Shown here one piece after another: positions 2,821 through 19,538 of a stretch of DNA of 40,673 nucleotides. A model generated the notes under the pieces. The model did not search any database. It saw only the letters and a list, made by a program, of their open reading frames with translations, and had not been told where the DNA came from. Made by a program: the position numbers and the translations under genes. The DNA lies in the sequence record PQ179042; one strand, written 5' to 3'. The number at the start of each line of letters is the position of its first letter. Position 1 is the stretch's first letter. The DNA comes from Escherichia phage KM02.

Positions 2821-5502
2821 ATGAGCGTCATCTCTATTGAAAAACACGACTTCTCTGATGTGTCGAACGCCATTGAGCCGTTTAACCTGCTGGCTGACCA
2901 CTACGGGCAAGACCTTGCAGTCAAACAGCTTCAGCTTGAGCACGAGGCATACACTGAAGGCGAGCGACGTTTCATCAAGAACCTTGAGCGCCAGACTGAG
3001 CGCGGGGAACTGGCAGACAATCAGGTCGCCAAGCCTTTGATGCAGACTCTGGTCCCTAATATTGCGCAAGCCGTCAGGGAGTGGCATGAAGGGCCAGACG
3101 GGAAGCTGTCAACCTCTCGTCCTAGCGTAGCGTTCACCGTGTTGAGCACTGAAGAGAAGGCCGTCAAGGACCGCTCTATGCGCATCTCCTGTGAGTCTGC
3201 TGCGGTTATCATACTGAAGGTCATACTCTCCAAGCTGGTCAAGCCTGAAGGGATACCGATTACACCGATGGCCTCAGCGATAGGTCGCACACTTGAGGAC
3301 GAAATCCGCTTCGGTCGCATCCGTGACAAGGAGAAAGAGCACTTCAAGAAGGCGATAGCTGATAACCTGAATAAGCGGGCCGGGGCGTCCTACAAGAAAG
3401 CCTACATGCAAGCGGTCGAGGCATCCATGCTGGAGCAAGGCCAACTGGAAGATGCGTGGGGGACTTGGAGTCCGACCGAGGCTGTCCACGTTGGAATCAA
3501 GATGCTGGAGATTGTCATCCAGTCCACACAACTGGTCGAGCTTAAGCGTTACGGTGCTGGCAATGCAGCGGCTGACGTTGAGATGGTCCACCTGTCAGAC
3601 TTCTGGGTCAAGAAGATGGCACAACGAGGATTCAGCCTTGCGGGTATAGCTCCAGTCTACCAGCCTTGCGTCGTTCCACCTAAGCCGTGGACTGGTGTCG
3701 TAGGTGGTGGGTACTGGGCCAAAGGACGCAGACCATTACCACTGATTCGCTTAGGGTCTAAGTCTGCGGTAGCACGCTACGAAGACGTGTATATGCCTGA
3801 AGTCTATGACGCTGTGAACATCATTCAGAATACACCTTGGAAAGTGAACAAGAAGGTTCTGGAAGTGGTGAACATGGTCGAGAAGCTGAACAACACGCCT
3901 ATTGATGACATACCTCAGATGGAACCGCTGAAGCCTGAGGACTATGCGGGTGAGACTGAAGATGAACTCAAGGCATGGAAGAAGGCTGCTGCTGGTATCT
4001 ACCGCCGAGAGAAGGCACGGCAGTCACGCAGATTGTCACTGAGCTTTATCGTTAACCAAGCGAACAAGTTCTCTCAGTTCAAGGTCATATGGTTTCCGTA
4101 CAACATGGACTGGCGCGGTCGCGTCTACGCTGTGCCGATGTTCAACCCTCAAGGCAACGACATGCAGAAAGGTCTCCTTACTCTGGCAGTCGGCAAGCCT
4201 ATTGGCGCTGATGGTTTCAAGTGGCTGAAGGTCCATGGTGCAAACTGTGCGGGTGTCGATAAAGTCACCTTCGAGGAGCGCATCAAGTGGGTGGAAGACA
4301 ACCACGACAACATCATGGCTGCTGCTAAAGCACCGATGGACAGCATTGAGTGGTGGGGCAAGTTAGACTCTCCGTTCTGTTTCCTCGCGTTCTGCTTCGA
4401 GTATGCTGGCGTAATGCACCACGGCCTGTCTTACTCCTGCTCGCTGCCGATAGCGTTCGATGGGTCCTGCTCTGGTATTCAGCACTTCAGTGCGATGCTT
4501 CGTGACCACATCGGTGGACATGCAGTAAACCTGACGCCATCCGGTAAGGTACAAGACATCTACCGCATTGTGTCTGACCGCATTGAGGAGGAGCTTAAAG
4601 TCCTGCTGATTAACGGTACTGACAACGAGATGGGCACTCACGAGGATAAGAAAACTGGTGAGATTACCGAACGTATCAAGCTGGGGACACGAGAGCTGGC
4701 CCGTCAGTGGCTGACATACGGTATGTCACGCAAGGTCACTAAGCGTTCAGTCATGACTCTGGCCTACGGGTCGAAAGAGTATGGCTTCGCAGACCAAGTT
4801 TACGAGGACATCGTGATGCCAGCGATTGACTCAGGGTCTGGCGCTATGTTCACCGAGCCAAGCCAAGCGGCTCGCTTCATGGCTAATATGATTTGGGAAG
4901 CTGTGAGTGTGACCGTAGTTGCTGCGGTAGACGCTATGAAGTGGCTTCAGGGTGCCGCCAAGCTGCTGGCTGCTGAAGTGAAGGACAAGAAGACTGGAGA
5001 AATCCTGAAGCCTTGCCTTCCGGTACACTGGGTAACACCTGATGGTTTCCCGGTCTGGCAGGAATATCGCAAGAAGGATACCACTCGTCTGAACTTGATG
5101 TTCTTAGGGTCATTCAACCTTCAGCCTACCGTCAACAGGGGTACGAAGAAAGAGCTGGACAAGCACAAGCAGGAGTCAGGCATTAGCCCGAACTTCGTCC
5201 ACTCACAAGATGGTAGCCACCTACGCAAGACTGTAGTCCATACTCACCGCAAGTATGGCGTGATGTCGTTCGCAGTGATTCACGATAGCTTCGGGACCAT
5301 CCCGGCTGACGCTGAGTATCTGTTCCGTGGGGTCCGTGAGACTATGGTCGAGACCTACCTAGACAACGATGTGCTGCTTGACTTCTACGAGCAGTTTGAA
5401 TACCAGCTTCACGAGAGCCAGCGCGATAAGTTGCCAGAGCTTCCGAAGAAAGGTAAACTGAATATCGAAGACATCTTGTCTTCAGACTTTGCATTCGCTT
5501 AA
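2821..5502 (+). CDS. 1: DNA-directed RNA polymerase, single-subunit T7-type
   Basis: 893 aa; extensive identity to recalled T7 RNAP motifs (FSDV...PFN.LADHYG, WFPYNMDWRGRVYAV, HGANCAGVDK, ending DFAFA). Confidence 0.98.
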   Translation: MSVISIEKHDFSDVSNAIEPFNLLADHYGQDLAVKQLQLEHEAYTEGERRFIKNLERQTERGELADNQVAKPLMQTLVPNIAQAVREWHEGPDGKLSTSRPSVAFTVLSTEEKAVKDRSMRISCESAAVIILKVILSKLVKPEGIPITPMASAIGRTLEDEIRFGRIRDKEKEHFKKAIADNLNKRAGASYKKAYMQAVEASMLEQGQLEDAWGTWSPTEAVHVGIKMLEIVIQSTQLVELKRYGAGNAAADVEMVHLSDFWVKKMAQRGFSLAGIAPVYQPCVVPPKPWTGVVGGGYWAKGRRPLPLIRLGSKSAVARYEDVYMPEVYDAVNIIQNTPWKVNKKVLEVVNMVEKLNNTPIDDIPQMEPLKPEDYAGETEDELKAWKKAAAGIYRREKARQSRRLSLSFIVNQANKFSQFKVIWFPYNMDWRGRVYAVPMFNPQGNDMQKGLLTLAVGKPIGADGFKWLKVHGANCAGVDKVTFEERIKWVEDNHDNIMAAAKAPMDSIEWWGKLDSPFCFLAFCFEYAGVMHHGLSYSCSLPIAFDGSCSGIQHFSAMLRDHIGGHAVNLTPSGKVQDIYRIVSDRIEEELKVLLINGTDNEMGTHEDKKTGEITERIKLGTRELARQWLTYGMSRKVTKRSVMTLAYGSKEYGFADQVYEDIVMPAIDSGSGAMFTEPSQAARFMANMIWEAVSVTVVAAVDAMKWLQGAAKLLAAEVKDKKTGEILKPCLPVHWVTPDGFPVWQEYRKKDTTRLNLMFLGSFNLQPTVNRGTKKELDKHKQESGISPNFVHSQDGSHLRKTVVHTHRKYGVMSFAVIHDSFGTIPADAEYLFRGVRETMVETYLDNDVLLDFYEQFEYQLHESQRDKLPELPKKGKLNIEDILSSDFAFA

Positions 5503-9465: not shown

Positions 9466-9896
9466 AGAGACTAAACCGTGAGTCACTGCGGAGTAAGATA
9501 CTAGAAAATGTGACCAGAGAGAATTACTGCTGGATTTGGCAGAAGTCTTTCGGGTCACATGGATATGGTAATATAGGGACTGGGGGACAACGAAATGAGA
9601 CAGTACATAGGGTTTCATACGAAGTGTTCAATGGGACCATACCTGAAAAAATGCTGGTATTACATTCGTGTGACAACCGTAAGTGTTGCAACCCTGAGCA
9701 TTTACGGGTCGGAACATACAAGGAGAACCTCACGGATAGAGACACTAGGTCAAAGCGTGTGGTTGTTATGACTATGGATAAGGCTAGGGAGGCGAGAGCC
9801 TCTGGTCTTTCATGTACTGAACTAGCCACCAAATATGGCCTGTCTTATTCCTCAATGTTTAAGCTATTAAGAGGTGAGACATGGCGAGAAGTATGA
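9462..9896 (+). CDS. HNH homing endonuclease with C-terminal helix-turn-helix
   Basis: Motif YGNIGTGG...VHRVSYEVFNGTIPEKMLVLHSCDNRKCCNPEHL; sits between genes 2.5 and 3; TTG start with no clear SD. Confidence 0.75.
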   Translation: MKRLNRESLRSKILENVTRENYCWIWQKSFGSHGYGNIGTGGQRNETVHRVSYEVFNGTIPEKMLVLHSCDNRKCCNPEHLRVGTYKENLTDRDTRSKRVVVMTMDKAREARASGLSCTELATKYGLSYSSMFKLLRGETWREV

Positions 9897-15683: not shown

Positions 15684-15977
15684 ATGCCTACTGGATGTAT
15701 CGTCTGCGTGTCCCACAAGAGGAACCAAGATGGATACTTCCGGTATTCTATGTGAAGCTACAGGAAGGGCAACAAGTTCGCCTTCATGTTTCACAGATGG
15801 GTGTGGGAACAGAAGCGCGGACCTATACCGGATGGCTATGAGATAGACCATTTGTGTTTGAATCGTGGGTGCTGTAACGTAGAACATCTACAATGTATTC
15901 CAAAGCGTGATCACGTCATCAAGACTAACCGTGAGCGCAAACTTATTAAGAAGGAGAAGACTAATGGCTATTACTAA
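15684..15977 (+). pseudogene. HNH homing endonuclease (T7 gene 5.3 position) interrupted by an in-frame TGA at 15753-15755
   Basis: Frame reads MPTGCIVCVSHKRNQDGYFRYSM-stop-SYRKGNKFAFMFHRWVWEQKRGPIPDGYEIDHLCLNRGCCNVEHL; HNH-like on both sides of the stop. Confidence 0.55.
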
Positions 15978-16248
15978 ACGTATTCGTGTAAGTTTCGACC
16001 TGAAGATGGTTGTCAACTCAAAGGAAGAAGAGACCATGTGTCGCCAACTGGCTGAGATGACTAAAGCCTACGCTGATGGCGAGAAGCTGGATGGACTTCA
16101 GTTGGCTATGGTCAAAGCAGCAATCGAGTCAGGACCTGAGTCTGCCCTCGAGATTGCCGTCAAGAAGGTCATCAAGGAGGAGCTGGTGGACGCCTTTGGT
16201 GATGACCAGTTCGGTGTGTCCAACCTGCAATTCGAGGTCAAGCAATGA
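15964..16248 (+). CDS. 5.5: gp5.5-like protein
   Basis: MAITKRIRVSFDL matches the T7 gp5.5 N-terminus MAMTKRFKVSFDV; SD aaggag; the track ORF 15907 is an upstream extension. Confidence 0.7.
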   Translation: MAITKRIRVSFDLKMVVNSKEEETMCRQLAEMTKAYADGEKLDGLQLAMVKAAIESGPESALEIAVKKVIKEELVDAFGDDQFGVSNLQFEVKQ

Positions 16249-16454
16249 GTGAATACTTACGGGTCCTAGCGGCCCTTAAGTCCTGCCCGAAGACCTTCCA
16301 GTCTAACTATGTGCGCAACAACGCTGCACTTGTGGCTGAGGCTGCGAGTCGTGGACATCTAAGCTGCCTGTCTATGGATGGGCGTAACAACGGTGCGTGG
16401 GAAATTACCGCTGCTGGCACCAAGTTCCTGAACCAACACGGAGGCTGTCTATGA
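16245..16454 (+). CDS. 5.7: gp5.7-like protein
   Basis: 69 aa; MSEYLRVLAALKSCPKTFQSNYVRNNAALVAEAASRGH is near-identical to T7 gp5.7 as recalled. Confidence 0.85.
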   Translation: MSEYLRVLAALKSCPKTFQSNYVRNNAALVAEAASRGHLSCLSMDGRNNGAWEITAAGTKFLNQHGGCL

Positions 16455-16900
16455 AGATACCTGAAAGTCTGAAAGAGCTGGTCCTTGAAATGGCTGAATT
16501 CGATAAGGAGCACCGCAAGTACGGTGAGTTCTACGCATCTTGGTCATTCACCCTGACTGAGAAGGACGTTGAGGCCTACGCAGAGTCTCCCGCTGAGGCT
16601 TATGAGTGGCATCCGTTCATCGGACTGACCATCGTAGCTAGCGGTATGTGGGATGACGGATACGGCTCAGAGGTAAACGACTGGGACGTGTACCGCCAAG
16701 TTGAGAAGGAGACCGAAATGTCTTCCAACTTCTGGAGCCTGATGTCACACCTCAACTCAGAGGATAATGACATGGCCCATGAGTTCGCCAGTAAATGGCT
16801 GAAGCCTGAGGTGACTCTGGAACGTATTGAGGAGCCTAAAGTTCCCTTGATGCCATATGCAGTCGCTATGGCTACAGGAGGTCTGGATGATGGGTGCTGA
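16451..16900 (+). CDS. Strongly acidic hypothetical protein at the gp5.9 position
   Basis: 149 aa from ATG 16451 (SD acggagg); about 30 D/E versus about 11 K/R; no similarity to T7 gp5.9. Confidence 0.5.
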   Translation: MKIPESLKELVLEMAEFDKEHRKYGEFYASWSFTLTEKDVEAYAESPAEAYEWHPFIGLTIVASGMWDDGYGSEVNDWDVYRQVEKETEMSSNFWSLMSHLNSEDNDMAHEFASKWLKPEVTLERIEEPKVPLMPYAVAMATGGLDDGC

Positions 16901-17759
16901 GAAGAAGATAGCTCTTGTTCTTGATGGCGATTACCTAGTATTCTCTTCTATGGCTGCTGCCGAGGACGAGACAGACTGGGGCGATGATATTTATACTCTG
17001 ATTTGTGACCACGCCAAGGCTCGTCATATCCTTGAGAACACCATCGCTGAAATCGTTAAGAATCGCAAGGCGTGGAAAGACGCTAAGATTGTGATGTGCT
17101 TTACGGATGATAATAACTGGCGTAAGGATGTTCTTCCTACCTATAAGGCCAACCGTAAGGGTTCACGTAAGCCTGTAGGTTACAAGAAGTTCGTAGCCGA
17201 AGTGATGGCTGACCCACGGTTCAACAGCTTTCTGCGTCCTACGCTTGAGGGTGATGACTGTATGGGCATCATCGGGACCAGACCTCAGATTGTCGGATGT
17301 GACCATGCGGTTCTGGTGTCCTGTGACAAGGACTTCAAGACCATACCGAACTGTGAGTTCTTCTGGTTAACCACTGGTGAAATCCTGAGTCATACGACTG
17401 CTGAGGCAGACTACTGGCACATGGAGCAAACCATCAAGGGTGACACTACAGATGGCTACGGTGGCATTCCGGGGATGGGTGAGGACACCACTCGTGCGTT
17501 CCTTGACGAGCCGTACTACTTCGTGCAGGAGAGCCGTGAGCTTAAGACTGGTAAGAACAAAGGCCAGATTAAGACTGAGTGGAAGAAGTATCCAAAGCGT
17601 GAAGACATGACGCTGTGGGATTGCATGGTGACTCTGGCTGCTAAGGCTGGCATGACCGAGGAGGAACTTCTGGTCCAAGCTCAGGTCGCTCGTATTTGCC
17701 GGGCCTCCGACTACGACCCTAAGTCCAAGGAGGTCATACTGTGGACACCATCCATGTAA
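16887..17759 (+). CDS. 6: 5'-3' exonuclease
   Basis: CDHAKARHILE, NWRK, YKANRK, CDKDFKTIPNC, TIKGDTTDGY, GKNKGQ, TLWDC, AKAGMTEEE match T7 gp6; SD aggagg 5 nt upstream of 16887. Confidence 0.92.
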   Translation: MMGAEKKIALVLDGDYLVFSSMAAAEDETDWGDDIYTLICDHAKARHILENTIAEIVKNRKAWKDAKIVMCFTDDNNWRKDVLPTYKANRKGSRKPVGYKKFVAEVMADPRFNSFLRPTLEGDDCMGIIGTRPQIVGCDHAVLVSCDKDFKTIPNCEFFWLTTGEILSHTTAEADYWHMEQTIKGDTTDGYGGIPGMGEDTTRAFLDEPYYFVQESRELKTGKNKGQIKTEWKKYPKREDMTLWDCMVTLAAKAGMTEEELLVQAQVARICRASDYDPKSKEVILWTPSM

Positions 17760-19149: not shown

Positions 19150-19538
19150 CACCATGTCATGAATGGGGTGGATACTGCACCAAGGATGGCTACGGTGAAA
19201 CTAGGGTAGATGGGCGCAAGGTTCGCGTTCATCGCCTAGAGTGGACGAAACACTACGGACCTATTCCGCATGACAAAGTGGTTCGCCACAAGTGTGACAA
19301 CCCTAAGTGTTTTAATATTGAACACCTAGAGTTAGGAACAACACAGGATAACACGGCTGACAGAGTGTCTCGTGGTCGAAGCGCCAAAGGAGAGGATAAC
19401 GGTAACGCCGTCCTCACTATTGATATTGTTAATGAGGTTCGCGAAAGTAGCATGTCTCAGCGCAAAATAGCGAAGACCTATGGAGTGTCACAGTCTACCG
19501 TATCTAAAATCAAACGCAATGTAACGTGGAGGTCATAA
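19146..19538 (+). CDS. HNH homing endonuclease with C-terminal helix-turn-helix (T7 gene 7.7 position)
   Basis: KDGYGETRVDGRKVRVHRLEW...GPIPHDKVVRHKCDNPKCFNIEHL plus HTH IAKTYGVSQSTVSKIKR; 130 aa. Confidence 0.8.
   Translation: MTPCHEWGGYCTKDGYGETRVDGRKVRVHRLEWTKHYGPIPHDKVVRHKCDNPKCFNIEHLELGTTQDNTADRVSRGRSAKGEDNGNAVLTIDIVNEVRESSMSQRKIAKTYGVSQSTVSKIKRNVTWRS

Follow-up and report, generated by a model that had tools for sequence, protein, structure and literature searches.

An acidic two-part protein in the gp5.9 slot of Escherichia phage KM02: a candidate inhibitor of a host DNA-end nuclease

Escherichia phage KM02 (sequence record PQ179042; 40,673 nucleotides (nt), hereafter the window) is a K1F-like (Kayfunavirus) phage of the T7 type, with vB_EcoP-R1 as its best match (95%). 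We analyzed the gene that lies between genes 5.7 and 6, the position at which T7 encodes gp5.9. It specifies a strongly acidic protein of 149 amino acids (aa), hereafter the slot protein, in which a predicted new alpha/beta core carries an inserted helix-loop-helix module related to the proteins of Pfam family PF25708, named 'Phage T7 gp5.9 RecBCD inhibitor'. We propose that the slot protein may inhibit a host DNA-end nuclease stoichiometrically, with RecBCD as the most likely target, and put the probability of this reading at about 40%.

We favor inhibition because the gene occupies the same slot and shows the same coupling to gene 6 as T7 5.9, and because alternative cassettes (empty, PF25708 or the slot gene) are found at the same or nearly the same boundaries. 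Further grounds are the module common to the slot protein and the PF25708/phrog_6163 proteins, with three independent pairings of module and core; the acidity that the family has kept; and the like gene neighborhoods of known RecBCD inhibitors. In addition, the gene is accessory, its rate of evolution is close to that of gene 5.5, and its product has neither an enzyme-like nor a known fold.

The accessory cassette at the 5.7/6 junction

The gene, its cassette and its flanks are located as follows in the window.

16451..16900, stop codon included, plus strand: coding sequence of the 149-aa acidic protein (phrog_4382 family), supported by open reading frame (ORF) calls, composition, family profile and purifying selection
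16440..16444, plus strand: Shine-Dalgarno sequence GGAGG, read directly from the sequence, with a 6-nt spacer to the ATG of the slot gene
16455..16897, plus strand: accessory cassette of 443 nt with blastn-defined boundaries, missing from K1F and SH3 and represented in L018 by a 231-nt PF25708 cassette
16245..16454, plus strand: gp5.7 homolog (phrog_1334), left flank of the slot, 77% identical to T7 gp5.7
16887..17759, plus strand: gene 6 5'-3' exonuclease, right flank of the slot, 51% identical to T7 gp6

The first-pass annotation of this DNA had assigned the gene to the gp5.9 position, and the identity of both flanking products to their T7 counterparts bears this out. The coding sequence comprises 149 codons from ATG 16451 to the TGA at 16898-16900. 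Its start codon overlaps the stop codon of gp5.7 (ATGA), an arrangement that is a predicted translational coupling. At the other end, the start codon of gene 6 is ATG 16887 or 16890, downstream of a GGAGG at 16877-16881, and gene 6 shares 11-14 nt with the slot gene. T7 gene 6 overlaps 5.9 in a like manner, and both genes stand in a class II context. Within the coding sequence, no antisense gene, no sigma-70 promoter above chance and no terminator were found.

A composition count confirmed the acidic character that had been noted earlier. The protein contains 31 aspartate and glutamate residues, 12 lysine and arginine residues and 19 aromatic residues, with a net charge of -19 and an isoelectric point (pI) of 4.35. 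Its acidic fraction of 20.8% is the second highest among the ORFs of the window, after that of the scaffold protein (21.1%), and the acidic residues are found in both helices and strands.

The flanks of the 5.7/6 junction are 93-96% identical among the phages compared by blastn, and the segment between them varies. In K1F and SH3, homology to the window extends to 16454 and begins again at 16898 or 16899; gp5.7 directly abuts gene 6, and the slot is empty although the same exonuclease is present. In L018, a Kayfunavirus-like contig with flanks that are 94-95% identical, homology stops at 16454 and resumes at 16902, and the intervening cassette encodes a 78-aa protein that matches PF25708. The corresponding junction coordinates are 16454/16898 in the window, 3188/3190 in L012, 1156/1159 in L006 and 3504/3736 in L018. 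A PF25708-type gene is likewise found in the 5.7/6 slot of P510-like Klebsiella phages (L014), and T7-type gp5.9 was found in 187 phage records, from T7-, T3- and Yersinia-type phages. Because all of these occupants were seen, the slot has at least four states: T7-type gp5.9, a PF25708 'b-type' protein, the slot protein, and empty. Each cassette brings the Shine-Dalgarno sequence and start codon of gene 6.

By blastn, the 443-nt and 231-nt cassettes have no DNA similarity. This rules out the slot gene as a recent in-place chimera of the PF25708 cassette and indicates that the module they share is older or was exchanged as a module. In the T7-like contig L016, a PF25708-type gene (3501-3728) lies not at the 5.7/6 junction but between the gene 2 RNA-polymerase inhibitor and the region of the 2.5 single-stranded DNA-binding protein; therefore, the module moves between accessory slots. 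The empty, PF25708-type and slot-gene forms of the locus provide a natural isogenic system for testing function.

Family, predicted fold and the shared module

The slot protein is a member of phrog_4382 (E = 1.3e-45, residues 1-130 against profile positions 6-129 of 130), which is already catalogued as a PHROG of unknown function. Homologs are present in at least 170 phage records, and an exhaustive hidden Markov model (HMM) search of 1.84 billion representative proteins returned only 58 representatives, nearly all of them stand-alone proteins of 100-160 aa. The same 5.7/6 slot holds homologs in Przondovirus (Klebsiella), Berlinvirus Citrof5 and Jarilovirus. The net charge lies between -7 and -20 in all members of 90-170 aa, down to ~25% identity. 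Searches of Pfam, NCBIfam, PADLOC and PDB sequences with the protein and the family profile gave nothing meaningful; we set aside as noise the matches to SLT_L (Pfam, 17 bits, below the cut-off) and PDC-M02B (13 bits).

Among four Kayfunavirus alleles, the ratio of nonsynonymous to synonymous substitution rates (dN/dS) of the slot gene was 0.10-0.26. This is three to five times that of gene 6 (0.02-0.06) and similar to that of the host-takeover gene 5.5 (0.14-0.36); the value for gene 5.7 was 0. Module residues F94-F112 showed a single change, E104D, among the same alleles. Judging from these ratios, the slot gene is a real gene under purifying selection.

An AlphaFold2 model built on a 42-sequence alignment had a mean predicted local distance difference test score (pLDDT) of 82, with values of ~90 for residues 1-128. 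The predicted topology is alpha1, beta1-beta2, alpha2, alpha3, beta3-beta4, alpha4, loop, alpha5, beta5, and can be divided as follows.

16451..16708, plus strand: core alpha/beta domain, residues 1-86 (alpha1, beta1-beta2 hairpin, alpha2, alpha3, beta3-beta4 hairpin), predicted by AlphaFold2 with pLDDT ~90
16709..16798, plus strand: inserted helix-loop-helix module, residues 87-116 (F94..L97-M-S-H-L-N-S-E-D-N..M-A..E-F112), from AlphaFold2, the alignment and PF25708/phrog_6163 comparisons
16799..16834, plus strand: last strand beta5, residues 117-128, predicted to return into the core sheet, from AlphaFold2 and the alignment
16835..16897, plus strand: predicted disordered tail, residues 129-149, pLDDT <50

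The tail is found only in the Kayfunavirus-type subset and holds the Shine-Dalgarno sequence and start codon of gene 6. In a 110-sequence alignment, residues 1-90 and beta5 form a core that is common to all members, with E13, E16, E20, H21, R22, K23, F27, G58, G65, W67, D69, G72, E74 and D77 conserved. Residues 91-116 (alpha4-loop-alpha5, F94..LMSHLNSEDN.MA.EF112) are present in only about one third of the members and missing from the short forms. In the Ounavirinae homologs, the motif is degenerate (LMTR--AQEDELLQEF).

Foldseek found no structural relative of the model in the PDB at E<0.001, and a BFVD search returned uncharacterized relatives only. As neither search gave a characterized relative, the predicted fold is new, with no counterpart among gp5.9, Gam, Ocr, ArdA, Ugi, known sponges or enzymes. 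The slot protein has the low pI and high carboxylate content of generic DNA mimics (Ocr, ArdA, Ugi, Arn); no structural similarity of its predicted fold to a known DNA mimic was found. Structure prediction, which the first-pass annotation had suggested as a check on mimicry, thus produced no fold of known unrelated function, but also no known mimic fold and nothing positive for mimicry.

A search with the module segment retrieved a large family of acidic phage proteins of 65-85 aa, the b-type proteins, which share the pattern MS..FD.LMSHLNGEDN.MAEEF, a long helix, AGGVDNW.GY and an acidic tail. On PF25708, which has a gathering score of 24.5, they reach 47-65 bits. They belong to phrog_6163 and include proteins of Klebsiella phage P510 and Cronobacter phage GW1, Erwinia phage Y2 gp58 and ST32 gp48. 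The alignment of the slot-protein family with the b-type family by hhalign had a probability of 96.6% (E = 6e-10, 29 columns), and hmmsearch with the b-type HMM recovered the slot ORF at E = 6e-10. The phrog_6163 profile matched residues 90-115, and BLASTP aligned residues 73-147 with residues 3-71 of the b-type protein P0128, placing AMATGGLDD opposite ALEAGGVDN. The AlphaFold2 model of a b-type protein contained the same helix, 6-residue loop and helix, followed by a 29-residue helix. Taken together, these profile and model comparisons indicate that residues 87-116 are homologous to the N-terminal helix-loop-helix (LMSHLN.EDN.MA.EF) that most high-scoring PF25708 members carry. The short loop and the wrong residue pattern led us to reject an EF-hand reading of the helix-loop-helix.

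The resemblance to PF25708 proteins is confined to part of each protein. Both are acidic and both have the module, and in sister phages the same slot holds one or the other, with cassette boundaries that nearly coincide; the slot protein, however, has ~90 extra residues and a beta-sheet core. It has no PF25708 long central helix, no invariant G-V-D-x-W and no acidic C-terminal tail. Its end, AMATGGLDDGC, resembles the ALEAGGVDNW of PF25708 proteins and stops before W.GY and the acidic tail. PF25708 itself did not match the slot protein, either over its whole length at E<=1 or over residues 92-149 at E<=10 (gathering threshold 24.5 bits). A second, short match of the b-type HMM was observed between its G-G-V-D-N-W-x-G-Y region (profile positions 51-64) and residues 75-88, overlapping residues 72-83 (GSEVNDWDVYRQ; 16664-16699), which form strand beta4. 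It offers a hint that beta4 and the helix-loop-helix might together be present, in permuted and minimal form, in b-type proteins, although so short a match allows no judgment.

The module and the core were found paired in three ways. In the slot protein, the module is inserted within the core. In the metagenomic protein P0114, it is an N-terminal fusion, with phrog_6163 matching residues 1-32 and phrog_24684 matching residues 54-155; P0117 seems to be a copy of P0114 that has been truncated or frameshifted. In Erwinia phage Y2, the PF25708-type gp58 overlaps the start of gp59 by 8 nt (L020 2953-3595), and gp59 (phrog_24684) is a divergent member of the core family (hmmsearch E = 4e-10, hhalign E = 5e-5, Foldseek probability 1.0). 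Y2 gp59 and P0114 are thus core relatives at ~20% identity that adjoin or are fused to the same module, but as a separate upstream gene or an N-terminal fusion and not as an internal insertion. The independent fusions and the Y2 adjacency suggest that module and core act together. The literature searched appears to contain no account of the modular link with PF25708 proteins, of the multi-allelic cassette with its precise boundaries or of the new fold; full-text searches returned nothing relevant on the motif, phrog_4382, PF25708 or gp5.9 homologs.

Inhibition of a host nuclease and competing readings

T7 gp5.9 is a 52-aa acidic DNA mimic, a parallel coiled-coil dimer that blocks RecBCD; the structure of its complex with RecBCD is known from cryo-electron microscopy (PMC9836394). 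The slot protein is likewise strongly acidic and non-essential. However, it is three times larger, in line with the size difference that had been noted earlier, and its predicted 128-residue, five-strand alpha/beta domain contrasts with the coiled-coil dimer and N-terminal beta brace of gp5.9. The two have no detectable sequence similarity, and tblastn found no match to T7 gp5.9 anywhere in the window. The first-pass description of the protein as unrelated therefore holds for T7 gp5.9 itself, but not for the PF25708 proteins, with which it has residues 87-116 in common.

Lambda Gam is an acidic dimeric DNA mimic, and Gam and P22 Abc2 are phage modulators of RecBCD. Like the slot protein, Gam (phrog_259) and Abc2 are small, and their genes lie next to those for phage recombination or exonuclease functions; they have no sequence or family relation to it, and the slot protein has no significant PDB match. 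T7 5.9 adjoins gene 6 and lambda gam adjoins bet, and the rest of the lambda gam-bet-exo cluster shows the same placement beside recombination genes. The slot, the shared module and this recombination-gene neighborhood make RecBCD the prime candidate.

Several results set bounds on the tie to gp5.9. T7 gp5.9 (L005 960-1118) passes PF25708 only narrowly, at 27.8 bits against the gathering score of 24.5, and is placed in a separate PHROG, phrog_9014 (5.6e-40), which is not among the matches of the slot protein. Our own b-type profile aligned with T7 gp5.9 at an hhalign probability of 0.5%, and no gp5.9 chain was found in a PDB profile search, so that the tie between b-type proteins and T7 gp5.9 is made only by the model of Pfam. 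The label 'RecBCD inhibitor' is attached to b-type proteins by Pfam, phrog_6234, phrog_4790 and some GenBank records, and no experimental support for it was found in the literature searched. The Y2-type adjacency is missing in ST32, where gp49, downstream of the PF25708-type gene, was rejected as a member of the core family. PF25708 may be heterogeneous, and its label may have been over-propagated to phrog_6163, phrog_6234 and phrog_4790. The last of these ('host RecBCD nuclease inhibitor') is matched by PF25708-type proteins and was rejected as lambda Gam.

Under the proposed mechanism, the slot gene would be a non-essential, horizontally swapped host-takeover gene in the hypervariable gp5.9 slot, made most likely with the class II (DNA metabolism) genes. 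Its two-part product, the acidic alpha/beta core with the inserted helix-loop-helix, would bind a host DNA-end-processing complex, presumably RecBCD, stoichiometrically, and would thereby protect the linear phage genome and the intermediates of replication and recombination. The loop S-H-L-N-x-E-D-N would serve as the specific contact element, and the conserved negative surface as an electrostatic decoy for the DNA-binding site. DNA mimicry in the strict sense is no more than a possibility.

A broader proposal is more tentative and, in our judgment, rather doubtful: the core and the SHLN helix-loop-helix might together make up a new class of modular phage inhibitors directed against nucleases (RecBCD-type). 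The short, highly conserved module would then be a portable target-recognition 'warhead' that is carried on a coiled-coil scaffold (PF25708), supplied in trans (Y2 gp58 with gp59) or grafted into a new acidic alpha/beta fold (the slot protein), and the class would have spread in the form of swappable cassettes among T7-like, Felix O1-like and Chaseviridae phages. In bacterial immunity, RecBCD acts as a central hub, and, to our knowledge, few architectures of RecBCD inhibitors are known (Gam, gp5.9, Abc2). The family is widespread in phages relevant to therapy, including K1F-like coliphages, KP32-like Klebsiella phages, and Felix O1 and its relatives. Should the slot protein prove to be an inhibitor, this repertoire would gain a new fold together with a portable recognition module, and the means by which T7-like phages without gp5.9 deal with RecBCD could become easier to explain. 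Retron Ec48 and other guard systems could then also be triggered or probed in new ways.

The same logic of acidic decoy and contact epitope could be directed at another host factor, such as a nuclease-based defense, a restriction system or a structural maintenance of chromosomes complex (e.g. MukBEF), which we consider unlikely. The conserved acidity, the raised dN/dS and a hot-swap accessory locus typical of counter-defense genes would fit such a role, and the new fold gives no ground for expecting the target of gp5.9. Moreover, gp5.9 is itself reported to inhibit MukBEF as well as RecBCD (PMC7617805, PMC9836394). However, nothing indicates a specific alternative target, the neighbors are recombination and replication genes and not early anti-restriction genes, and a peptide-motif search found the slot protein in neither the searchable supplements of accessory-gene screens nor the anti-defense catalogue searched.

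The wider genomic context also bears on a different role, in the metabolism of phage DNA. Without exception, family genes are found in modules for replication, recombination or nucleotide metabolism, and a 5'-3' exonuclease and a ligase are often close by. In the Ounavirinae, divergent members (~25% identity) are near-universal (232 records, including Felix O1 and gene 0071 of Bas63) and are always placed between nrdD and nrdG, the anaerobic ribonucleotide reductase genes (L003, L009, L013). The same interval also carries homing endonucleases and several small unknown ORFs (bas63_0069 to 0072). In Proteus phage P59, the family member is near polA, a macro-domain gene, an exonuclease and a ligase, and on a marine contig it is near NT5C, a deoxynucleoside monophosphate (dNMP) kinase and a dUTPase. 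Such placement in at least five phage groups and one marine contig type, above all between nrdD and nrdG, would suit an accessory subunit or regulator that partners the exonuclease, ligase, polymerase or nucleotide-supply enzymes, as would the predicted translational coupling to gene 6 in the window. We nevertheless give this role only a small chance. The slot gene is dispensable and polymorphic in Kayfunavirus, given the empty slot beside the same exonuclease in K1F and SH3; no one neighboring enzyme is common to all contexts; and the protein evolves faster than the neighboring enzymes. In addition, the Bas63 segment with the ribonucleotide reductase genes has been described as non-essential on laboratory strains (PMC11482910).

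The best conserved core residues (~110 sequences) raise the thought of a small-molecule binder (sponge) or small enzyme that would use H21-R22-K23, F27, W67, D69, E74 and D77 at two beta-hairpin turns. These are basic or aromatic positions within an acidic protein, and a nucleotide ligand would suit the nucleotide-metabolism context. Such a function is improbable, as neither fold nor sequence resembles Tad1, Tad2, Acb2, nucleases or other PDB enzymes, and R22 is not invariant (HVKY in Bas63). Finally, although presence and absence vary among close relatives and a neighboring HNH gene, probably a pseudogene, points to gene flux in the region, it is very improbable that the slot gene is a selfish or decaying filler ORF without dedicated function in a recombination hotspot, given its dN/dS, its retention across several phage families to ~25% identity with motifs and charge kept, and its confident fold prediction.

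Neighboring genes and database annotations

Upstream of the slot gene lie the genes for the DNA polymerase, an HNH endonuclease, a gp5.5-like protein (phrog_1452) and the gp5.7 homolog. The HNH homing-endonuclease gene that follows the DNA polymerase (15684-15977, plus strand) has an in-frame stop at 15753-15755 (codon 24), whereas its 93-aa homolog in L018, 92% identical, is intact. Because the stop leaves only a 63-aa ORF (15786-15977), in which the HNH_3 motif is kept, the gene is probably a pseudogene. Two more HNH-like ORFs are present in the window, at ~9567-9761 and 19227-19331.

Family members and b-type proteins are misannotated in GenBank as 'tail tube protein', 'putative tail spike protein', 'putative DNA methylase' and 'nonfunctional dGTP triphosphohydrolase inhibitor'. 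The gene 6 exonuclease is misnamed 'DNA polymerase I' in the GenBank record of IME177.
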